DNA from: Elusimicrobiales bacterium
Lineage (GTDB): Bacteria > Elusimicrobiota > Elusimicrobia > Elusimicrobiales > UBA9959
Direction: 5' to 3'
Assembly (NCBI GenBank): GCA_031082205.1
Contig: JAVHLJ010000010.1
Coordinates: 954-64,953 of the forward strand
Length of the DNA: 64,000 nt
Below, in pieces: positions 1-64,000 of the stretch (positions are counted from its first letter, which is position 1; each line of letters begins with the position of its first letter). The notes under the pieces are model-generated. The model had not been told where the DNA came from, searched no databases, and worked only from the letters and a program-made list of their open reading frames with translations. A program made the translations under genes and the position numbers.

Positions 1-426
1 GGCGCCAGGCGGGCGCTGGCGGCCGGCCTGACCGCGGTATTCGTAGGACAGTCGCTGGCTATCAACGCCCTCCAGGCCGGGCGCTACAACAGCGCCTACA
101 ATTACGGCGGAGAAGGGCTGACCGAAGCCGCGGCCATGGCAGGAGATGCTATCCGGGATGGAGGAAAAGCGATAGTTCCCCTGGAGATCTATGGCACCCT
201 GCGCCTTTCCGGGCTGGTCCCGGAGAGGCTGCCCAACTCCATGTGGGAGAAGGACCGCCTGCTCGCCTCGGTAGGCGACGATGATTACAGGGCCGTGGTA
301 TACGGCATCCCCTCCAACACGGTGGAACAGGTTCGCCTGCTCAGGCATCCCGGGACGGTCTCCCTGTTCAGAGCGGAGGGCTGGAGATTTGGACGGACGG
401 GGACGTACGAGCTATGGACGAGATGA
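1..426 (+). CDS. C-terminal part of a membrane-associated protein of the polysaccharide locus (5'-truncated by the window edge)
   Basis: Frame is open from base 1 (GARRALAAGLTAVFVGQSLAINALQ...) and its stop overlaps the next gene. Confidence 0.6.
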   Translation, partial: GARRALAAGLTAVFVGQSLAINALQAGRYNSAYNYGGEGLTEAAAMAGDAIRDGGKAIVPLEIYGTLRLSGLVPERLPNSMWEKDRLLASVGDDDYRAVVYGIPSNTVEQVRLLRHPGTVSLFRAEGWRFGRTGTYELWTR

Positions 427-1124
427 AACCCGGACTTTCACTGGTAATACCTTTCTATAACGAGGAAGCCTGCGCCGGACCGGTAGTGCGAGGCACGCTT
501 GAGGCTCTTGAAAAAGCTGGGCTTGATTTCGAACTGATACTGGTGGAGAACGCGTCCTCCGACGGGACGCGCCGCATACTTGAAGGATTCTCCGGCGACC
601 CGCGCGTAAAGGTGCTGAAGCTGGAGAGGAATATCGGCTACGGCGGCGCCGTCACGGAGGGACTGGCGGCGGCCGCCGGCCGGCACCTGGGCTTCACCTG
701 CGGCGACGGGGAAATAGAACCGGGCGACACGGCAAAGGTATGCCGCATAGCCATATGCTCCGGGGAACCGGTATGTAAGGCGCGGAGAGTTGACCGCCTC
801 GACGGTCCCTGGAGAAAGTTCCTTTCGGTCGCGTATCACCTGCTGGTGGGACTGCTTTTCAGGGTCCACGTGACCGACGTCAACGGCTACCCGGTCATCC
901 TGACGAGGGAAGCGTACGAGGCGATAGGTCTGACCTCCCGCAACTGGGTCTTCAACGTGGAACTGCTGGTCAAGGCCCGTCGGCTCGGATTCGGCATCCT
1001 CGAGCCGGAGATACTCCATAGAAGACGGGCCGGCGGGCGTTCGCACGTCGGCTTCGGCACGCCGCTGGCATTCCTGGCCCAGCTGCTGAGGCTGCGGCTT
1101 TCAGACTTCGGCGCCGGCAAGTAA
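414..1124 (+). CDS. Glycosyltransferase family 2 (DPM1/ArnC-like)
   Basis: SLVIPFYNEE, VENASSDGT and NIGYGGA motifs. Confidence 0.9.
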   Translation: MDEMKPGLSLVIPFYNEEACAGPVVRGTLEALEKAGLDFELILVENASSDGTRRILEGFSGDPRVKVLKLERNIGYGGAVTEGLAAAAGRHLGFTCGDGEIEPGDTAKVCRIAICSGEPVCKARRVDRLDGPWRKFLSVAYHLLVGLLFRVHVTDVNGYPVILTREAYEAIGLTSRNWVFNVELLVKARRLGFGILEPEILHRRRAGGRSHVGFGTPLAFLAQLLRLRLSDFGAGK

Positions 1125-1142
1125 AGAGTTTCCGGTTCAGCG

Positions 1143-3398
1143 TCAGGGGCCATCGAACTCGTAAAGCGCCACGTTGCCCCCGGAATAGACCCGGGAAAGA
1201 CATCCGGGCTCCGCCGCCCCCGGGAATCCGTAAGACCTGCCGTTTGAGTCCCAGTAAACGTGCCCGATACCCCGGGCCGCCAGCCAGCCGCAGGGGTCCG
1301 GCATGCTTCCCGAAAAAAAGGCGTCAGCCTCGGCCGCGGCTCCCGAATAAAGCGGTTCGCTTTCCCATACCCAGTCGGAGTAAACGCTCGCGTACATGCG
1401 GCCTCCGCATAGCGCGGCCTGCGCGAAGACGGTGCGGTCCAGGACATTGTGCAGGTAAAGCCCCCCGCCTCCCGTCGCCCTTTCCATGACCTCGCAAGCC
1501 CTCCTGTTGTCGTCCGTCCAGGGCTCTAAATTCGCGCGCTTGGCCCCGGAAGCCCAATAGACGAATTTAGGAGCGTGAGAAAGGGCGACAACGAAGGGGA
1601 TCGCCGCCAGAACGCGCCAACCTCCGAGCCTGAAAGCGGGAGGGCCGAAAACGCGAAGGAGCGGATATGACGCGAGGGCCGGGATCCATGAGGCATAAAG
1701 CAGGAGGTTCGCGGCGGCGCCGCGCCTGAGCAAGCAATACACGGCGGCGAACAACAGGAACCCCGATAAAAAGACCTCCAGGGAACGACGCCGGGCTCCC
1801 CCGTCATCGGCAGGCTTCTTTTCGTCCCGGGACCGGGACGCCCAGCGCCACGCGGACCAGATGAAAAGCGTCCCGCCGGCTATAGCGCCCCGGACGCACC
1901 AGTCGCGGCCAGGCCAGGCGGTGAAAGCGCCGTACCTGTCCAGCGTGGAAACGGCAAGGTCGGCCAAAGGGGCCGCCAGGAAGACCGGGACGGACCGCGG
2001 CGTCAGGACCGGCTTCAGGTCCGAGAAAAAGAACGGGAGAGCGGCCGCCCCGCACAACCAGGCTGAAAAGAATACCCAGTAGCCGTGAGCGCCGACATGA
2101 TTGTAGTAATGGAAAAGAACGAAAATGACGCAGGCGGCGGCCATGACCGCGGCGGTCGAAAGGACCACCCGACCTTCCTCCGATATCCTGCCCCCCTCTT
2201 TTACGGCGCCGCGCGCCCAGAAAGAAAGGGCGATGAGAGGCAGCGCCGCCAGTATCAGGAACGTCGCCAGGTTCTCTATGACAGCGGGCAAAGCCGAAAG
2301 CAGACGGCCCGGGATCCCGCTCCACTCAGAGAAGTAAGCCAGCAGGCGAGGGGAAAGCGTGTAATCGGGAAGGAACTCCCTCAGCCAGCCCGGGACGGGG
2401 CCGAACTTGATCAGTCCGCCGGCGTTAAAACCCTGGCCCGAAAGAGACAGATACGCCAGCAGCCATAGGGCCGCGCCCGCGGCCAATGTAAAAATTACCC
2501 GGGCCCGGCGGCCCGGAAAGAGAGATAGATAAGAGACGAAAAAAACCAGGTAAAGCGCGCCGAAAGTCCCCTTCGAAAGCGTGATAAGCGCCGGCATGAG
2601 GGCGGAGACCGCAAGCCCCGGAACGAGCCCTCTGGACGCCGAAAAAACAAGCAAAGGCATAGCTGCCGCAGCCAGGCCAAGCGCGAAGGAATTCTGCCTG
2701 AAGGCGAAATTAAAAAGCATCTTAGGATGGACCAGGAAAAAAGCCAGAAAAGCCAGATACGGGGCAAGCCTCCAGTATCCCGGACGGAAAAGGGACAGGA
2801 TGGCCCTCATCCCCAGGAACAGGCAGAACCAGTTGAAAGGCACCAGGTACCGCAGGTAGACGGTCTCGAGCGGTATCCGCGTTATGGCGGAGGCCGAGCC
2901 CGCCAGGAACTCGGCCGCGTAATAGTAATGCATCAAGCCCGAATGAACGAATATATTCTGGGCCGGGAACTCCCGCATTGACGCGGCGGCCACCGCCATC
3001 CGCAGAAGTTCGTCCGAATGGTAAAGCGCCGCGGCGTCATGGGTGAGATAGGCGGAGAAAACCGCGGCGAGAGAGAGGAACGCCGCGCTTTCGGCGGAAA
3101 AAACGGAGCGAAGCGCGGACAAGGAAAGGGAGCGAGCCGCCGGGTCGCGGGAAACTATGTACATCAGGACGGCGCTGATAAGAGCGCTGAAGAGAGCGAC
3201 GGACCCGTGACCGATACCGGCCCAGCGCAGCGCGGGCCAAATGAGAAAGAAGAGGGCGGTACCGGCGGCGACCGCCGCGGCGCCCAGGAGGTCCCGCGGA
3301 CACACTTCGCGCTCCCGGGCGCAAAGAAGCCCCGTGATCATGGAACCGGGAAGGATCACGGAGAGCGATACGAATAAAATGAAAAGAACGGGACCCAT
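1143..3398 (-). CDS. Large polytopic membrane protein, possibly a GT-C-type glycan-modifying enzyme
   Basis: About 750 aa with many hydrophobic helices and a soluble C-terminal domain; lies inside the glycosylation locus; start moved to MGPVLF. Confidence 0.65.
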   Translation of the reverse strand: MGPVLFILFVSLSVILPGSMITGLLCAREREVCPRDLLGAAAVAAGTALFFLIWPALRWAGIGHGSVALFSALISAVLMYIVSRDPAARSLSLSALRSVFSAESAAFLSLAAVFSAYLTHDAAALYHSDELLRMAVAAASMREFPAQNIFVHSGLMHYYYAAEFLAGSASAITRIPLETVYLRYLVPFNWFCLFLGMRAILSLFRPGYWRLAPYLAFLAFFLVHPKMLFNFAFRQNSFALGLAAAAMPLLVFSASRGLVPGLAVSALMPALITLSKGTFGALYLVFFVSYLSLFPGRRARVIFTLAAGAALWLLAYLSLSGQGFNAGGLIKFGPVPGWLREFLPDYTLSPRLLAYFSEWSGIPGRLLSALPAVIENLATFLILAALPLIALSFWARGAVKEGGRISEEGRVVLSTAAVMAAACVIFVLFHYYNHVGAHGYWVFFSAWLCGAAALPFFFSDLKPVLTPRSVPVFLAAPLADLAVSTLDRYGAFTAWPGRDWCVRGAIAGGTLFIWSAWRWASRSRDEKKPADDGGARRRSLEVFLSGFLLFAAVYCLLRRGAAANLLLYASWIPALASYPLLRVFGPPAFRLGGWRVLAAIPFVVALSHAPKFVYWASGAKRANLEPWTDDNRRACEVMERATGGGGLYLHNVLDRTVFAQAALCGGRMYASVYSDWVWESEPLYSGAAAEADAFFSGSMPDPCGWLAARGIGHVYWDSNGRSYGFPGAAEPGCLSRVYSGGNVALYEFDGP

Positions 3399-3523
3399 CG
3401 ATCTTCGCGGCGCTCCTGAAATCAAAAATCCGTAAGCGAGCCGGGCTCGCTAATCCTGTGGAATTATATATATTATTAGGTCGGGCAAAATCCCGGGGCC
3501 GGATAGCGTCCGGGAAACGCGAA

Positions 3524-4744
3524 ATGAACATCTGCATACTCTCCACTTCTTTGACGGTACATCGCATGGGCGGAACGGAAGTGCATGCCGAGGCCCTGGC
3601 GGCCGAGGCCGCCCGGCAGGGGCATGAGGTCACGGTGGTCACCTCGTCCCACCCGTCCGGCCTGAAGGCCGAGCGGAAGAACGGTTTCGAAACCTTCTAT
3701 CTGGAAGGGACCAGCCACCTCATGTCGCGGGCGGACGCCCCCGCCTGGTGGCGCGCGAGCGCGGCGGAGGTCTCCCGGCTCGCGGCGAGCGGAAAGGCGG
3801 ATGTGGTCTGGGCGGAGAATTTCGCGGGGCTCTCCTGCGCCGCGATCCCGCGGGGAAAAAGACCGCCGGTCATATCGGTGGTGCAAGGGCTGGGCATACG
3901 GGGCGAGATCGCCAGCAGGTTCTCTGAAACGTCTTCTCTCTCCGGCCTGGCTTATTTCCTGACAAGGTACGCGGCGCAGACACTCCTCTACTATATCCCC
4001 AGGTTCAGGGCCATGGTCAGGGATTCGGACCTGCTGGTAGGCGTCAGCAGGGAGACCATAGCGGCCCTGCACGCCGAATTCCCCCGAAGCAGGATGAAAA
4101 CGTCCCTTATTTTCAACCCGGTGGACACCGGCCGCTTCAGGCCGGACCCGGGACTGAGAGCGGAAGCCCTGAAAAGGCTGGCGCTGCCCGCCGGAACCCG
4201 CCTCGTAATGATGGCCGGGGTTATGAGCCGGCAGAAAGGCATGCACGTCGGGCTGGAAGCCTTCTCTGCGATAGCGGACCGGTTCCCGGAGGCGAGGCTG
4301 CTCATAGTCGGCGACGGACCGGAGCGCGGCGCCCTGGAAGCCGCGGCCGCCGGCCTGAAGGACAGGATAATCTTCGCGGGGCGGGCCGGCAACGCGGACA
4401 TGCCGGCGCATTATAACTCGGCGGACGTCTACCTTAACCCCACGCTGCGGCTGGAAGGCCTGCCTCTCGTCATCGCCGAAGCGATGGCCTGCGGCCTGCC
4501 TTCCGTCGTTTCAAGGATCGGGGGCACGGCCTCTACTATAGAAGACGGGATAAGCGGTTTTTTCGCGGCCCCGGGCGACGCCGCGGGGCTGGCTTCCGGA
4601 ATGGAAAAACTGCTCCGCGACCCCGGCACCGCCGCCGGCATGGGCAGGAAGGCGAGAGCCGACGCCGAAGCGAGATTCAGCCTTTCCAACGCAGTACGAC
4701 GCTACGCGGAGGAATCCGGGAAATTGCTCGGGGAGGGATCATGA
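3524..4744 (+). CDS. Glycosyltransferase family 4
   Basis: MGGTEVH at the N-terminus; QKG and EGLPLVIAEAMACGLP motifs. Confidence 0.92.
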   Translation: MNICILSTSLTVHRMGGTEVHAEALAAEAARQGHEVTVVTSSHPSGLKAERKNGFETFYLEGTSHLMSRADAPAWWRASAAEVSRLAASGKADVVWAENFAGLSCAAIPRGKRPPVISVVQGLGIRGEIASRFSETSSLSGLAYFLTRYAAQTLLYYIPRFRAMVRDSDLLVGVSRETIAALHAEFPRSRMKTSLIFNPVDTGRFRPDPGLRAEALKRLALPAGTRLVMMAGVMSRQKGMHVGLEAFSAIADRFPEARLLIVGDGPERGALEAAAAGLKDRIIFAGRAGNADMPAHYNSADVYLNPTLRLEGLPLVIAEAMACGLPSVVSRIGGTASTIEDGISGFFAAPGDAAGLASGMEKLLRDPGTAAGMGRKARADAEARFSLSNAVRRYAEESGKLLGEGS

Positions 4745-6366
4745 CCGCCCCGCTCGTCTCCGTCATAATCGTAAGCTATAACACCAAAGAGACGCTCCGG
4801 CGCTGCCTGGAATCCGTAAGAACCCGTTGCGCCGATATCGCGCATGAGGTTTTAGTGGTGGACAATGCCTCAGCTGATGGCAGTCCCGCCATGGTGCGCG
4901 AGGATTTCCCGGAAGCGGCGCTGATAGAGAACGCCGGGAACGCGGGATTTGCCAAAGCAAACAATCAGGCCCTCCGCCTTATGAAGGGAGAATATGCTCT
5001 TCTTTTGAACAGCGACGCCTTTCTGCGGCCGGGATCGGTCGAAGCCATGCTTTCCTGCATGGACAGACATCCCGGCGCGGCAATGGTCGGGCCGAAACTC
5101 CTGGACGAATCGGGCAGGACGGTCCCGTCCACCTACCCGCTGCCGTCGCCCTGGAAAGAGACGCTCCTGGCCCTCAGGGCTTACCTCCTGCTGCCCGCCG
5201 CTATTAACGCCCGCGTTTTCCTGGGTTCTTTTTTCAAGCATGACCGCCCGGCCGAAGCCGGCAGGCTCACCGGCGCCTGCGTTCTGATAAGGAAGCGCGC
5301 GCTGGAGGAGATAGGCCCGCTGGACGAGGACTTCTTCTTCTACGGCGAGGTCCACGACTGGTGCTGGCGGGCCGGGAAAAAGGGCTGGAAGGTCCTTTTT
5401 TGCCCCGGGGGCGAGGTGGTCCATCTCGGCGGCGCCAGCTCCGGCGCGAGCTGGCCGTCGGAGGAAAGACTGAAGATAAACCTGCGCGAGCAGGAGCGGA
5501 TGCTGGCAAAAAACCTCGGAACTCTCTCGCGCTGGTGGATAATGTCGTGCAGGCTCTTCGGCACGGGCACCGCCGCGCTGGCGAACGCCCTCTTCAGGGA
5601 AGGCCGGCCGGAAGCGCGGCGGGCCAAGGCGGAATTCTCCTGGTTCCTGGGGCGTTTTTACGGGACAGCGGCCTGGATATTGAAGAAGAACCGGGCCGCC
5701 AGGGCTTTCTATTCGTCCGGATTCCACCGCGGCGGCACCGTGCGGCTTTTATCCGGGGAACTGGGCTGCGATGCCGCCCTCTTCAGGTCCTACCTGGACG
5801 AGGCGGCCGTTCTCGCGGGGGAGACGGAGCGGCGGCTAACCGAAGCGGCCGGCAGGGGCGCCAGGGCTGGCGCGATGGACCTTTTCGGAGCCCGCCTCCT
5901 CTACGCCGCGGTAAGGGCCCTCAGGCCGGTCTCCGCAGTGGAGACCGGCGTCGCGAACGGAGTGTCATCGCTTTTCATACTGTCCGCCATGGAACGGAAC
6001 GGCCGCGGAAAACTTCATTCGATAGACCTTCCGGAAGCGGAAGGGTTCATCCCCGCGGGCAGGGAAGCCGGCTGGCTGGTGGAGGGCGGGCTCCGGGCGA
6101 GGTGGCGGCTGATCATAGGCGATACCCGCGAGCTGCTGCCCGCCCTTCTGTCGGAACTGGGCGGGACCGGCCTCTTCCTGCACGACAGCGCCCACACCGA
6201 AGAGAACATGCTCTTCGAATACAGGACAGCGTGGCCTTTCCTCGGATCCGGCGGCCTCCTCATATCGGACGACACCGGCTTCAACCGGGCTTTCGCCGGG
6301 TTCGCCTCCGGGACCGGAAGAAAACCTATAATATACTCGGACAGGCTGGGGTTCCTTAGAAAATGA
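4741..6366 (+). CDS. GT2 glycosyltransferase fused to a C-terminal class I SAM methyltransferase (Methyltransf_24-like)
   Basis: N-terminal VSVIIVSYN/VDNASADGS/LLLNSDA/FFFYGE; C-terminal VETGVANGVSS, LHSIDLP, FLHDSAH and LISDD. Confidence 0.85.
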   Translation: MTAPLVSVIIVSYNTKETLRRCLESVRTRCADIAHEVLVVDNASADGSPAMVREDFPEAALIENAGNAGFAKANNQALRLMKGEYALLLNSDAFLRPGSVEAMLSCMDRHPGAAMVGPKLLDESGRTVPSTYPLPSPWKETLLALRAYLLLPAAINARVFLGSFFKHDRPAEAGRLTGACVLIRKRALEEIGPLDEDFFFYGEVHDWCWRAGKKGWKVLFCPGGEVVHLGGASSGASWPSEERLKINLREQERMLAKNLGTLSRWWIMSCRLFGTGTAALANALFREGRPEARRAKAEFSWFLGRFYGTAAWILKKNRAARAFYSSGFHRGGTVRLLSGELGCDAALFRSYLDEAAVLAGETERRLTEAAGRGARAGAMDLFGARLLYAAVRALRPVSAVETGVANGVSSLFILSAMERNGRGKLHSIDLPEAEGFIPAGREAGWLVEGGLRARWRLIIGDTRELLPALLSELGGTGLFLHDSAHTEENMLFEYRTAWPFLGSGGLLISDDTGFNRAFAGFASGTGRKPIIYSDRLGFLRK

Positions 6367-60713: not shown

Positions 60714-61451
60714 TCACTCCTCGCCGAATTCCGTTATGTTCTTCCTGTATTTGAGCGGCACGAACTGCCGCTGCAGGCCGGGGTTGAGCCTTTCCTTTAT
60801 CGCGACGGAATCGAAGAAGGCGCGCCAGAGCGACGCGGTGCGCTTTTCTTTTTCGGACGGCGGCGGCACCGAGGCTTCCAGCGCCGAGACCAGCCGCAGC
60901 CGGCCGCCGGCGTGCATCGCGGCCAGGCCGCGCTTTTTATCGTGGAGTATCCAGTTGAAGCCCGCCATCCGGCGGCGAAAATGATTGGTGATGAGCGGCA
61001 GTATATTGTGGTCCGGCTCTATTTCCGAGTAGAGCGTGCCGTCTTCGAGCTCGCGGAAGCGGACCAGGCCCTTGAATCGGTGCGCCTCGCGCAGGACCGC
61101 CAGGGCCGTCTTATGCGCCCGGTTGACCACCGGATCGGCCAGCCGGTCGTTAAGTCCTTTGCCCGCGGCGAAAGCGCGCCGCGCGTAGGCCAGCATCAGC
61201 GCGTCGCGGTCCTTCTCTTTGGAGAGGAAGCAGAGCTTTATATTGTCCACGGTGTCCGGGCCCGAAACCGCGGACACCCGCTCCAGGAACTCGGCCGCCT
61301 TCCTGCCGTCGCTCTCGACTTCGTTGGCCGGGGCGAACAGATCGTCCTGGGCGGGCGTCCGGTCGGCCATCTCGGCGGCCGGGTCGCTCACCGCCGCGGC
61401 CAGGGCGCAGACCAGGCCAGTGAAGGTGCCGTCGTGGACGTAGGCGCTCAC
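60714..61451 (-). CDS. Putative DNA repair protein, TIGR03915/DUF4130 type
   Basis: HDGTFTGL, EAHRFKGLVRF, EPDHNIL and LWRAFFDSVAIKERLN. Confidence 0.88.
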   Translation of the reverse strand: MSAYVHDGTFTGLVCALAAAVSDPAAEMADRTPAQDDLFAPANEVESDGRKAAEFLERVSAVSGPDTVDNIKLCFLSKEKDRDALMLAYARRAFAAGKGLNDRLADPVVNRAHKTALAVLREAHRFKGLVRFRELEDGTLYSEIEPDHNILPLITNHFRRRMAGFNWILHDKKRGLAAMHAGGRLRLVSALEASVPPPSEKEKRTASLWRAFFDSVAIKERLNPGLQRQFVPLKYRKNITEFGEE

Positions 61452-62713
61452 GCGGGCGCCCCCGCCGGGGCGGTTTCCGGGGCCGGCTCAAAAAGTTCCG
61501 GCTGCGCGGGTTTTCCCGACGGGCCTTCCAGAAGCTTTGCGCGTATAGCCGCGGGGTCGTCGCGCCGCAGGCCGCCGTATATCCCGCCCGCCGTCACGAA
61601 ATAGACCGCCCGCTTCATCACCGCGCCAAGGCGGGAGAGGTCCTCCAGCCGCAGGCTCCCGGCCCGCCGCGCGCGCACTATCCTTTTGGCCGTCAGCACG
61701 CCGAAGCCGGGCACTCGCAGCAGCTCCTCGTAGGGCGCTTTGTTGACCTCCACCGGGAAGCGGTCCAGGTTGCGCAGCGCCCAGACCGTCTTGGGGTCGA
61801 AGGTCAGGTCCAGGCAGGGGCATTTCTCGTCGAGCAGTTCGTCCGTGCTGAAGCCGTAGAAGCGCAGCAGCCAGTCGGCCTGGTAGAGCCGGTGCTCGCG
61901 CCGCAGCGGCGGCTCTTTCACTGCCGGCAGGCGGCTGTCCGTGGTCGCGGGCACGAAGGCGGAATAGTAAACCCGTTTGAGCCCCAGCTTGTCGTATAGC
62001 GACTGGCTGAGCTTCATTATCTGCAGGTCGCTCTCGGGGCTGGCGCCGACTATGAACTGAGTGCTCTGGCCGCCGGGCGCGCAGGGCGGGGCCTTGTGGC
62101 TTTTGCGGCGCTCTTCTTTGCCGGCCGCGATTGAATCGGCGAGTTGCGCCATCGGCTTGAGCACGCCGTCGCGGCTTTTCTCGGGCGCCAGGCGCTCCAG
62201 CGAAGCGGCGCTGGGCAGCTCTATGTTGACGCTGACGCGGTCGGCGTAGAGCGCGGCCAGGTCCACCAGCCGCCTGTCGCAGCCGGGTATCACTTTGAGG
62301 TGTATGTAGCCGGGGAACTTGTGATCGACGCGGAGCTTGCGCGCGGCGCCTATCATCAGCTCCATCGTGTAATCCGGGCTGCGCGCGACGCCGGAGCTCA
62401 GGAACAGTCCCTCGATATAGTTGCGGCGGTAGAAATCCATGGTGAGGCCGGCTATCTCGTCGGGAGTGAGGAGAGCGCGCGGCGTATCGGAGGAGCGGCG
62501 GTTCACGCAGTAGGCGCAGTCGTAGACGCAGAGATTGGTCATCAGGATCTTGAGCAGCGAGACGCACCTGCCGTCGGCCGACCAGCTGTGGCAGCAGCCG
62601 GGCACGCGCTCCGCGCGGCCGCCCGCGCCCGGGCGCGTCGAGCCCGACGAAGCGCAAGAGGCGTCGTACTTGGCGCCGGCCGTGAGTATCTCTATCTTGC
62701 GCCGCAGGTCCAT
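61448..62713 (-). CDS. Putative DNA modification/repair radical SAM protein, TIGR03916 type
   Basis: AKYDASCASSG, CVYDCAYC, REHRLYQADWLLRFYGF and a C-terminal HhH. Confidence 0.92.
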   Translation of the reverse strand: MDLRRKIEILTAGAKYDASCASSGSTRPGAGGRAERVPGCCHSWSADGRCVSLLKILMTNLCVYDCAYCVNRRSSDTPRALLTPDEIAGLTMDFYRRNYIEGLFLSSGVARSPDYTMELMIGAARKLRVDHKFPGYIHLKVIPGCDRRLVDLAALYADRVSVNIELPSAASLERLAPEKSRDGVLKPMAQLADSIAAGKEERRKSHKAPPCAPGGQSTQFIVGASPESDLQIMKLSQSLYDKLGLKRVYYSAFVPATTDSRLPAVKEPPLRREHRLYQADWLLRFYGFSTDELLDEKCPCLDLTFDPKTVWALRNLDRFPVEVNKAPYEELLRVPGFGVLTAKRIVRARRAGSLRLEDLSRLGAVMKRAVYFVTAGGIYGGLRRDDPAAIRAKLLEGPSGKPAQPELFEPAPETAPAGAPA

Positions 62714-62873
62714 CCTTACATTATAGAAAAGGGGCGCGACAGCGTAGTGTCGCACCCCCTCCGCCCCGGCGCCCGCCGGGCGGAAGAGGGAACCGGCGGT
62801 TCCCACGCGAAAATTTCAGAAAAACGCGCCGCCGGAAGGGGAGAAAGCGGGGGAGTTTGCGATAATCGCGCTT

Positions 62874-63178: not shown

Positions 63179-63240
63179 CTAAAACTATCGCCAGGGGGTT
63201 CCTGGCTGGTAACTTAGGTACAGAAAAGAGAGGTTAAGCC

Positions 63241-63555
63241 ATGACAAGTAAAGAAATACCGTCCCGGCGTGAAGCGCTGAAGCGGATGGCCAAAGTCTCC
63301 TTCGGTATGGGTTTGGGCCTTCAGCTTATCGGCGCCTTTGTCCCACAGGCCGAGGCCGCGGCGCCGGGGAGGATTTCCCCCAGGTTCGATACCATAGGGA
63401 AAGTCTCCCTGCCCGCCGGTCTCCCGAACGGGGTGTCGCAGGACAATACCCTGCGCGGCTGCGGCGTCTACACCAAGGGCGGGGGGTATGCCCAGAACGG
63501 CTACGCCGACTATGGGAGATACCAGGACTACGTAAATGACGGTAACTGCGGCTGA
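63241..63555 (+). CDS. Tat-signal small protein with a Tyr/Gly-rich C-terminus; candidate radical-SAM-modified RiPP precursor
   Basis: GAGGT RBS; SRREALK twin-Arg motif, AEA cleavage site; core GCGVYTKGGGYAQNGYADYGRYQDYVNDGNCG. Confidence 0.75.
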   Translation: MTSKEIPSRREALKRMAKVSFGMGLGLQLIGAFVPQAEAAAPGRISPRFDTIGKVSLPAGLPNGVSQDNTLRGCGVYTKGGGYAQNGYADYGRYQDYVNDGNCG

Positions 63556-63562
63556 TACGCTT

Positions 63563-63597
63563 CCATGCCGCCGCGGGTGATCCCCGCGGCGGTATGG
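63563..63597 (+). other. 15-bp intercistronic stem-loop without a U tract
   Basis: CCATGCCGCCGCGGG-TGATC-CCCGCGGCGGTATGG between the precursor and the radical SAM gene. Confidence 0.75.
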
Positions 63598-63611
63598 GCC
63601 ATGGAGAAAAG

Positions 63612-64000
63612 ATGCCAAATATCCTTCTTACACAGAAATGCGTGCGCTCGTGTCCCTACTGCTTCGCAAGGAAGCAGATGAACGAGAACGACGGCGGGGA
63701 CACTCTCAAGTGGGAAGACCTCGTCTACCTCGCCGACATGTTCGCGCAGGGCGGCTGCAAGGAGATGCGCTTCCTCGGCGGCGAGCCGACGCTGCACCCG
63801 GCCTTTTCCGATTTTGTCGCTTATTCGCTCCAGCGCGGATTCTCGGTCACGGTATTCACCAGCGGGATCATGTCCGACAAGGTCAAGGCCGGGCTTCGCC
63901 GGGTTTACAAGACCTTCCCCGGGGCCGATAAGGACCTCTCCTTCCTCTGCAACCTCAACGACCCGGAAGTGTCGCCCCCGGAAGAGACAAAAAAGGTCGA
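63612..64000 (+). CDS. Radical SAM protein (3'-truncated by the window edge; absent from the ORF track)
   Basis: GGAG RBS; MPNILLTQKCVRSCPYCFA (CxxxCxxC) and FLGGEPTLHP. Confidence 0.9.
   Translation, partial: MPNILLTQKCVRSCPYCFARKQMNENDGGDTLKWEDLVYLADMFAQGGCKEMRFLGGEPTLHPAFSDFVAYSLQRGFSVTVFTSGIMSDKVKAGLRRVYKTFPGADKDLSFLCNLNDPEVSPPEETKKV

Follow-up and report, generated by a model that had tools for sequence, protein, structure and literature searches.

The stretch of DNA analysed in this study (the window, 64,000 nt) covers positions 954 to 64,953 of contig JAVHLJ010000010.1 (G000:C1:954-64953) in the genome of an Elusimicrobiales bacterium, hereafter G000, whose assembly (GCA_031082205.1) comprises 2.75 Mb in 98 contigs with a completeness estimate of 100%. 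At the end of the window lies a gene for a small precursor-like peptide, A, followed by the 5′ part of a radical S-adenosylmethionine (SAM) enzyme gene, B, a pair which the original prediction had described as a candidate new peptide modification system running off the window edge. The contig continues 7 kb past the window end, and on it B is followed by C and by D, a second, predicted active, radical SAM/SPASM enzyme. The order A-B-C-D was read from this part of the contig, and the same order was found in G031, a genome of the same family. The features of the locus are collected in Table 1.

Table 1. Features of the A-B-C-D locus of G000; L003 coordinates equal window coordinates minus 63146.
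Feature	Window position	L003 position	Strand	Description	Basis
Shine-Dalgarno-like GAGAGG	63228..63233		+	7 nt ahead of the A ATG	read from sequence
A	63241..63555	95-409	+	104-aa precursor-like peptide	open reading frame and homologues with the same gene neighbours
A, residues 1-39	63241..63357		+	n-region with SRREALKRMAK, Gly/Leu-rich hydrophobic stretch, AEA	
A, residues 9-17	63265..63291		+	RREALKRMA, motif common to family peptides across phyla	
A, residues 44-73	63370..63459		+	spacer with RFDTIGKVSLPAG, conserved only in three Elusimicrobia-type peptides	
A, residues 74-104	63460..63552		+	Tyr-rich tail CGVYTKGGGYAQNGYADYGRYQDYVNDGNCG between C74 and C103	
Stem-loop	63563..63597		+	15-bp GC-rich stem, no U-tract	-36 kcal/mol, z -4.08
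B	63612..64000 (5′ part)	466-1467	+	333 aa, ends 613 bases past the window	predicted radical SAM/SPASM
C	past window	1464-2300		278 aa	predicted radical SAM/SPASM fold without SAM cluster
D	past window	2281-3387		368 aa from the MPTIIF start; longest open reading frame from TTG at 2254	anSME/DynA/ChlB-like, predicted radical SAM/SPASM
E	past window	3303-4130		DUF3738/TIGR03435-like open reading frame	40.2 bits vs cut-off 40
F	past window	4883-5470		195 aa	no family match

Peptide A reads MTSKEIPSRREALKRMAKVSFGMGLGLQLIGAFVPQAEAAAPGR...CGVYTKGGGYAQNGYADYGRYQDYVNDGNCG and carries all the elements first noticed in it, namely an SRREALK...AEA N-terminus, a spacer, Cys residues at positions 74 and 103, and Tyr residues (positions 77, 83, 88, 91, 94, and 97), of which four, in Y88-A-D, Y91-G-R, Y94-Q-D, and Y97-V-N, stand in exact 3-residue register. 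Four Tyr at a step of three arose by chance in 145 of 100,000 shuffles of residues 43–104, and in 948 of 100,000 shuffles of residues 74–104. The best 12-residue Kyte-Doolittle hydropathy mean after the motif was 1.82, and the 62 residues following AEA contain no lipobox. No family match was obtained for A in Pfam or NCBIfam, and no sigma-70-like promoter was found upstream of it in a promoter scan. Homologues of A were found in G031, with the same gene neighbours (E 3.8e-10), and in a metagenome protein of 98 aa, P0122 (50% identity, E 4.5e-14), indicating that A is a real gene; a weak match in G040 (E 0.0033) lay within a 336-aa frame. The locus, whose habitats are groundwaters, was present near-identically in contigs from runs of several other studies, which differ at one intergenic position only (63133), so these contigs hold no variation for judging selection on A.

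In alignment A3, the three Elusimicrobia-type peptides share the signal-like part and the spacer (RFDTIGKVSLPAG, RFGIIGGVSSPAN, and KFSTIGHVSSPAN). The tails of A, the G031 peptide (CYQATYANSTHTYSYSRGTCP) and P0122 differ, and P0122, the closest relative, is without any Cys, so the Cys-bracketed core is not a feature of the family; a Cys bracket recurs in L018, L019, L022, L023, and L042.

Between A and B, the stem-loop described in the original prediction was located; none of 200 shuffles folded as well, and it is absent from the terminator scan list. B starts with an ATG at 63612 preceded by GGAG (63603–63606) and reads MPNILLTQKCVRSCPYCF...FLGGEPTLHP. The CVRSCPYC and GGEP motifs are present, and the in-window part matched PF04055 at 53 bits (cut-off 29.5), confirming the CxxxCxxC/GGEP radical SAM gene.

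PF04055 was matched above its cut-off by both B and D. In B, the three Cys of CxxxCxxC (C10, C14, and C17) were invariant in 14 of 14 sequences, and the full set of invariant Cys in these sequences, which come from several phyla, comprised 12 positions (10, 14, 17, 113, 215, 220, 242, 257, 299, 302, 310, and 314). The SPASM hidden Markov model (HMM) gave no match on B, yet C215, C220, C242, C257, C299, C302, C310, and C314 are all invariant. The structure model of B (predicted local distance difference test score, pLDDT, 82.8) aligned over residues 1–331 with SuiB (Z 18.8, root-mean-square deviation, rmsd, 3.5, 289 aa) and anSME (Z 18.0), followed by PqqE (Z 16.2) and ChlB (Z 15.7). From the full-length fold alignment and the 12 invariant Cys, B is predicted to be an active radical SAM/SPASM enzyme without an RRE domain. 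In NCBIfam, B matched through the radical SAM core only, with viperin and MoaA as the best, and none of the cyclophane-synthase models (XyeB, GrrM/OscB, FxsB, YhhB, and AmcB) was above noise or among its 25 best matches.

For C, no family match was obtained in Pfam or NCBIfam, and CxxxCxxC was absent from 24 of 24 sequences, in which a C-terminal CxxCx5C is the sole invariant Cys motif. Yet the model of C (pLDDT 86.3) showed a radical SAM/SPASM-like fold, with anSME (Z 12.4, rmsd 3.9, 254 aa), ChlB (Z 12.0), CteB (Z 11.9), and TigE (Z 11.1) as matches, so C is filed as a predicted pseudo-enzyme, a dead member of this fold. Profile comparison of C with B gave nothing (probability 0.6%), that is, C is not a recognisable sequence paralogue of B despite the common fold. 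In the ESM Atlas, C clusters with proteins named 'hypothetical protein' only, and a GeoRSP SPASM-only protein was among its structural neighbours (TM 0.59). When C (alignment A2) and A (alignment A3) were modelled as a complex, the score was 0.00 in both runs, which counts neither way.

D carries a CxxxCxxC (C12, C16, and C19) that was invariant in 21 of 21 sequences, and a SPASM domain (TIGR04085, 47 bits vs cut-off 27) with the invariant Cys C246, C252, C268, C311, C314, C320, C324, and C342. All 21 members of the D family matched the DynA, anSME, DarE, AmcB, GrrM/OscB, YhhB, XyeB, and FxsB models; for the cyclophane-family models the best E-values on these members were 2.9e-36 and weaker, far short of the cut-offs. 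The bit scores of D against the respective cut-offs were 143.8/450 for DynA (NF041298), 130.6/349.45 for anSME (TIGR03942), 105.9/650 for DarW (NF041300), 101.6/650 for DarE (NF038005), 93.4/425 for AmcB, 80.8/310 for GrrM/OscB, 80.1/445 for YhhB, 55.5/450 for XyeB, and 55.2/370 for FxsB. Among solved structures, D matched anSME (4k37) at 47.9 bits, ChlB at 47.5 bits, and the SPASM part of PqqE at 22.1 bits. ChlB is a triceptide synthase with the native motif YDR, as given in the available part of PMC11499958. These matches place D in the anSME-like radical SAM/SPASM group that contains cyclophane and ether formers, and suggest that D, two genes downstream of B, is the triceptide-like enzyme, while the adjacent B is not by sequence. 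The proposal of a triceptide-type maturase thus held to the extent that D is near ChlB, but not for B, and D remained below all cut-offs.

No RRE domain was found in B, C, or D, and the cluster contains no peptidase gene; the AEA signal peptidase site of A could serve for release in place of a cluster peptidase. Reading the downstream sequence, as the original prediction had advised, thus yielded a SPASM domain and further genes of the radical SAM fold, but neither RRE nor peptidase; instead, a dead C and, in most relatives, a GT9-type glycosyltransferase came to light.

Of 1235 candidate relatives of B, 602 matched at E≤1e-5. In a scan of one genome per species, at least 470 stretches were found to encode a relative, and 80 loci were kept. 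The closest relative of B is 73% identical and labelled Elusimicrobiales, and the rest are 46–50% identical and come from other phyla; D is 74% identical to its nearest relative. B was followed by C in 41 of the 80 kept loci, and by D too in 38 of these 41. B scored about 280 bits or more in the 41 loci, while in the other 39 the B-like genes are more distant and no C accompanies them. Together with G000 and G031, the 41 public loci make up the 43 cassette loci referred to below. Among 1.84 billion sequences, the C profile matched 438 representatives at E≤1e-3, 342 at 1e-10, and 269 at 1e-30. The labels of the cassette loci span more than ten phyla and include Nitrospirota, Bacteroidota, Gemmatimonadota, Ignavibacteria, Spirochaetes/Spirochaetota, Fibrobacterota, Deltaproteobacteria/Desulfobacterota, Acidobacteriota, Alphaproteobacteria, Planctomycetota/Isosphaeraceae, Elusimicrobia/Elusimicrobiota, and one metagenome-assembled genome (MAG) labelled Thorarchaeota. 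In the latter (L049), a complete B-C-D-GT9-peptide cluster was observed and no TatC was found in that MAG; the cluster could reflect transfer or a binning error. As a separate observation, L059 (6001-8843) and L066 (5953-8719) carry distant B-like genes in tandem pairs with a short B-like open reading frame (ORF) between them, a different subfamily without C or Tyr-rich peptides.

In 23 of the 41 loci, D is either followed by or fused with a GT9-type glycosyltransferase (PF01075, 27.5 bits in L007 and 51 bits in G031). The D-GT9 fusions (685–850 aa) occur at L019 7831-9939 and also in L023, L025, L029, L030, L032, L034, L036, and L039, which are labelled Deltaproteobacteria, Acidobacteriota, and Alphaproteobacteria; elsewhere the two are separate genes. 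The order is A-B-C-D-GT9-redoxin::DUF3738-DsbD in G031, and B-C-D-GT9-A in G323, a genome of the same class as G000. Only three further clusters of genes recurred in three or more loci, an ABC ATPase, TatC, and a protein without known family, and no peptidase or exporter gene recurred in the cassette neighbourhoods. No curated Pfam or NCBIfam model exists for A, B, or C, apart from the radical SAM core of B. No published description of an A-B-C-D system was found in the full-text literature, with most subscription papers and supplements outside its coverage. D-like enzymes may already be present as an uncharacterised cluster in published cyclophane-synthase networks; a network of 5369 cyclophane synthases is shown in supplements, according to the available part of PMC11499958.

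A small ORF was nearly always present beside the cassette, before B or after D/GT9. The peptides it encodes share one layout: after a charged start and the motif [ST]RR[DE]A[LIM]KR[IM]A come about 20 residues of moderate hydrophobicity, then an AxA or lipobox-like site, then a tail in which Tyr, Ser, and Asn predominate. By regular expression, 31 ORFs with the motif were found in 30 of the 43 cassette loci (a total that includes G000 and G031), and a leader HMM built from these matches added four loci and lost one. In the union, an RR-motif ORF was present in 34 of the 43 cassette loci compared with 3 of the 39 non-cassette loci, and two of these three are truncated contigs carrying a high-scoring B of the same subfamily. 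Most RR-motif ORFs have a Tyr-rich tail, and in three more loci, from Bacteroidales (L022, L038, and L042), KK or KR replaces RR in front of such a tail. These counts, together with those for B and C, support the view that peptide and radical SAM genes occur as a conserved unit, and that homologous B genes co-occur with RR/Tyr-rich peptide ORFs, as the original prediction would have it.

In 31 family peptides, the tails are composed of 33% Tyr, 16% Ser, and 12% Asn, and the residue two positions after Tyr is most often N (224), Y (211), S (209), or D (59). Tyr period 3 is strict in L018, L019, L022, L023, and L042, period 4 dominates in L007 and L010, and the others carry dense YY arrays. The periodic core of A thus represents one variant of a wider Tyr-x-[N/S/D/Y] pattern: the predicted Tyr-rich character extends to the family, while the exact period of three is found in some relatives only. 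The tails reach up to 65% Tyr and can be long (138–202 residues at 26–56% Tyr in L008 and L011; about 130 residues in L009), and short forms also occur (L025, L039, and L071). A lipobox-like Cys follows the signal in L007, L010, L011, L013, L014, L020, L024, L026, L029, and L046. Two tandem peptide genes with tails of 51% and 56% Tyr and YYNYYNYSYSD-like repeats were observed in L043 (4279-5280). The peptide of G323 (L095 3392-3676, reverse strand; ARRQALKRMAALAANKGGFKSQKNPLGPKGPKNK...) keeps RRQALKRM and is without the hydrophobic region, its best 12-residue hydropathy being 0.07 compared with 1.31–2.67 in 35 others; the G323 genome has TatC.

The N-terminus of A had been read as a signal for twin-arginine translocation (Tat). 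TatC (searched with PF00902, TIGR00945, and the TatC protein of a same-family relative) and TatA (PF02416) gave nothing above threshold in G000. None of the 7 genomes of the genus, of which five are 97–100% complete, yielded a TatC, compared with 5 of 24 genomes of the family, and TatC was not found in G031 (completeness 96%). The Tat-signal HMMs PF10518 and TIGR01409 gave no match on A at E≤0.1. The N-termini of relatives scored below threshold (TIGR01409, 12.2–15.3 bits vs 16.7; PF10518, 14.1 vs 22.7), and gave weak matches to the Iro, MelC1, and BagZ/FevE models at the N-terminal ends of these models, which we take to represent Tat-exported proteins. In the spirochaete loci L013 (TatC with 158 bits on PF00902), L020, and L046, tatA and then tatC directly follow the peptide gene, and in the Bacteroidales loci L008 and L009 tatA adjoins it, giving tat linkage in 5 of the 43 cassette loci. 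TatC was present in 13 of 16 cassette-bearing genomes tested and in 11 of 14 control genomes, and since it is that common, the co-presence is weak evidence. Based on the gene linkage, the Tat link appears real for the family, whereas Tat export is not supported for the G000 peptide, as TatC/TatA were undetected in G000, six congeners, and G031. Moreover, the RR motif is kept in the Tat-less G000, in the G323 peptide without hydrophobic region, and as KKEALKRMA in L042, which suggests that it has a function beyond Tat, in the simplest case recognition by the maturases.

These results indicated a genuine, apparently undescribed radical SAM-modified peptide system, of which the G000 copy is a reduced, Tat-less version. 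From the observed gene content, conservation, co-occurrence, folds, and motifs, we consider with moderate confidence that A is the substrate of the B-C-D cassette that follows it, and that its Tyr-x-x tail would be cross-linked in the cytoplasm before the peptide is exported and cut. In such a pathway, the enzymes would recognise the N-terminal RR[DE]ALKR[IM]A of A in the cytoplasm and put radical cross-links on the Tyr-x-x motifs of the tail. D would most likely make triceptide-type Tyr-to-Cβ cyclophane links, by analogy with its nearest characterised relatives, which modify aromatic-x-x motifs (PMC11499958; PMC12912966; available parts of both). B would add a second modification, and C would perhaps be a non-catalytic scaffold, while the stem-loop that separates A from B would allow more peptide message than enzyme message. 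Export of the modified peptide would follow, with cleavage of the signal-like N-terminus at AEA. In most lineages, export would be by Tat, with the GT9 glycosyltransferase acting beforehand and a lipobox often anchoring the product; the G000 version, without GT9 and without Tat genes, would leave via Sec or not at all. A C74-C103 disulfide is possible after export, as hinted by the redoxin-DUF3738 fusion and DsbD after the G031 cluster. More generally, since the gene set recurs across phyla, it is probably the mark of a new family of secreted peptides with enzyme-made cross-links.

Several observations weigh against the proposal that A is cross-linked by the cassette and exported. Besides the absence of Tat, the only GT9 match in G000 is a generic one of 28.6 bits elsewhere in the genome. 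Within the phylum the cassette has a patchy distribution, occurring in 3 of 301 genomes (E≤1e-40) and in none of the three congeners sampled. Only two close relatives of A, the G031 peptide and P0122, were found, and the spacer-bearing type amounts to three peptides. The Tyr share after the signal is 0.10 in A and 0.07 in the G031 peptide, the lowest in the family. The G000 copy is possibly a reduced variant, or one that is declining or working differently, as suggested by its lack of GT9 and Tat. On the enzyme side, B has no informative relative beyond the radical SAM core, D lies below every curated anSME-like family cut-off (at best 143.8 vs 450 bits), and the chemistry of D could differ from that of all named families. 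On the peptide side, the leader HMM count is not independent of the regular expression count, and the invariance of RR in alignment A3 follows from how its sequences were selected; no candidate peptide is present in 6 of the 43 cassette loci, two of them at contig ends (less than 150 bases from the cassette) and four not.

A less probable alternative, which we still take seriously, is that the cassette matures a structural envelope component, a Tyr-rich, often lipid-anchored, glycosylated polypeptide kept on the cell as a matrix, adhesive, or protective layer, of which G000 would have a short version. The long tails of L008, L009, and L011, the lipobox-like Cys in ten loci, the GT9 after or fused to D, and the lack of a recurring peptidase or exporter gene are consistent with it. 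However, A is small and has no lipobox, G000 lacks GT9, and short forms also exist in L025, L039, and L071.

Taken literally, the original prediction would have B, the enzyme next to A, make the cyclophanes of a triceptide that is exported from the G000 organism by Tat; this is considered unlikely. Although SRREALK with a hydrophobic stretch and AEA, the Y-x-x register, the sub-threshold Tat-signal matches of relatives, the tat genes beside the peptide gene in five loci, and TatC in 13 of 16 cassette genomes speak for it, neither TatC nor TatA was detected in G000 despite its estimated completeness of 100%, nor TatC across the genus or in G031, B has no cyclophane-synthase match above noise, and the Tat HMMs miss A.

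It is about equally doubtful that the G000 cluster, acquired by horizontal transfer, is now a remnant in decay that makes nothing useful. The rarity in the phylum, the missing GT9 and redoxin half of the DUF3738 fusion, the lack of Tat, and the Tyr-poor A would fit such a remnant, but A to D are intact full-length ORFs, each with all family-invariant Cys and motifs. Further, the locus is near-identical across several studies apart from one intergenic difference, and B and D, without stops, retain 73% and 74% identity to their nearest relatives.

Tyr is the reacting residue in the pyrroloquinoline quinone (PQQ) and mycofactocin pathways, the B model resembles PqqE (Z 16.2), and D matches the PqqE SPASM part (22.1 bits), but that A is the precursor of such a small redox cofactor cut from its Tyr motifs is very improbable, as the cluster has no peptidase, PqqB/C-like, or MftE-like genes, the signal-like N-terminus and Tat genes point to polypeptide export, and dozens of repeats and lipoboxes are a misfit.

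A bolder reading can be offered tentatively. In this new class of ribosomal products, one N-terminal segment would be both maturase leader and Tat signal; B and D, with the dead C, would cross-link poly-Tyr tails in the cytoplasm and GT9 would glycosylate them. The product, no longer threadable through Sec, would leave by Tat, sometimes with the cluster's own tat genes. In the envelope of anaerobes belonging to more than ten phyla, it would then form a cross-linked tyrosine polymer, either free or anchored to lipid. The G000 copy would be a Tat-independent offshoot that keeps the motif.

Radical SAM-modified peptides rank among the main sources both of new enzyme chemistry and of antibiotics, darobactin being one example. 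Here, three of the four core proteins lack a curated model, and the putative substrates are unlike known precursors in their signal-like leader, Tyr tails, frequent lipoboxes, associated glycosyltransferase, and, in some clusters, own tat genes. If the chemistry holds, the system would provide a testable case in which maturases recognise their substrate by its signal peptide and Tat carries a cross-linked peptide out of the cell. The Tat-less G000 copy would serve as a natural experiment to tell which of the motif's roles is the essential one. The family is also wider than could be seen from the window sequence alone.

Other genes around the cluster were also inspected. E and F were considered as members of the system and dropped, as neither recurs in the 41 public loci. 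The G031 counterpart of E adjoins the cluster as a redoxin fusion: at L089 4349-7384, a redoxin/AhpC-TSA protein fused to DUF3738 (TIGR03435 type) and then DsbD directly follow the cluster, which hints that DUF3738 is partnered with periplasmic thiol-disulfide chemistry. In G000, the DUF3738 half alone is left. F has an N-terminal hydrophobic segment and many spaced Cys, and sits between the cluster and a P-type ATPase gene on the opposite strand. Directly upstream (60714-62716, reverse strand), a putative DNA modification/repair radical SAM protein (TIGR03916, 571.5 bits) is paired with a DUF4130 protein (TIGR03915, 224.7 bits), a pair that appears unrelated to the peptide cluster.

The system was finally compared with known ones. 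Similar to Tat substrates matured in the cytoplasm, the family peptides have RR, a Gly/Ala-rich stretch of moderate hydrophobicity, and either AxA or a lipobox, and tat genes stand in five clusters; unlike them, the position after RR-x is always Ala and not Phe, both Tat HMMs remain below threshold, G000 has no Tat genes, and the G323 peptide keeps the motif without a hydrophobic region. The GeoRSP and TIGR04347 pseudo-SAM/SPASM cassettes likewise pair an active radical SAM/SPASM enzyme with a fold-mate lacking the SAM cluster, but B scored 19.7 bits against a cut-off of 400 for GeoRSP_rSAM and matches to pseudo_SAM_Halo were 22–36 bits against 525, no PqqD-family protein is in the cassette, and the peptides are different. 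The target of anSME is the Cβ of Ser or Cys, in a protein whose export follows the modification; among solved structures, anSME is the best sequence relative of D, the top structural match of C, and within 1 Z of SuiB for B, whereas D does not reach the TIGR03942 cut-off and no sulfatase gene is among the cluster ORFs.

The maturases of darobactin and dynobactin are, alongside anSME, the best NCBIfam matches of D (DynA 143.8, DarW 105.9, and DarE 101.6 bits), but the cut-offs of 450–650 were not reached, the family peptides have no core of the Trp-X-Trp type, and the cluster partners are different. Darobactin-type and triceptide enzymes share a common origin, as stated in the available part of PMC12912966. 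In comparison with the triceptide systems (ChlB, XyeB, GrrM/OscB, FxsB, YhhB, and AmcB), D scored 55–94 bits against cut-offs of 310–450, B and C are obligatory neighbours here, the leader is signal-peptide-like, the tails extend to about 200 residues, GT9 is usual, and there is no protease, while all characterised triceptides are cut before the first cyclophane (PMC12912966, available part). In common with these systems, A has a C-terminal core with repeated aromatic-X-X motifs (YAD, YGR, YQD, and YVN), and the candidate maturase is an anSME-like radical SAM/SPASM enzyme without RRE whose joint best solved relative, ChlB, acts on the Tyr motif YDR (available parts of PMC11499958 and PMC12912966). 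Judged by these comparisons, the A-B-C-D system is not a member of the triceptide class by the available tests, yet among the known pathways it is the triceptide pathway that it would most resemble in its working.

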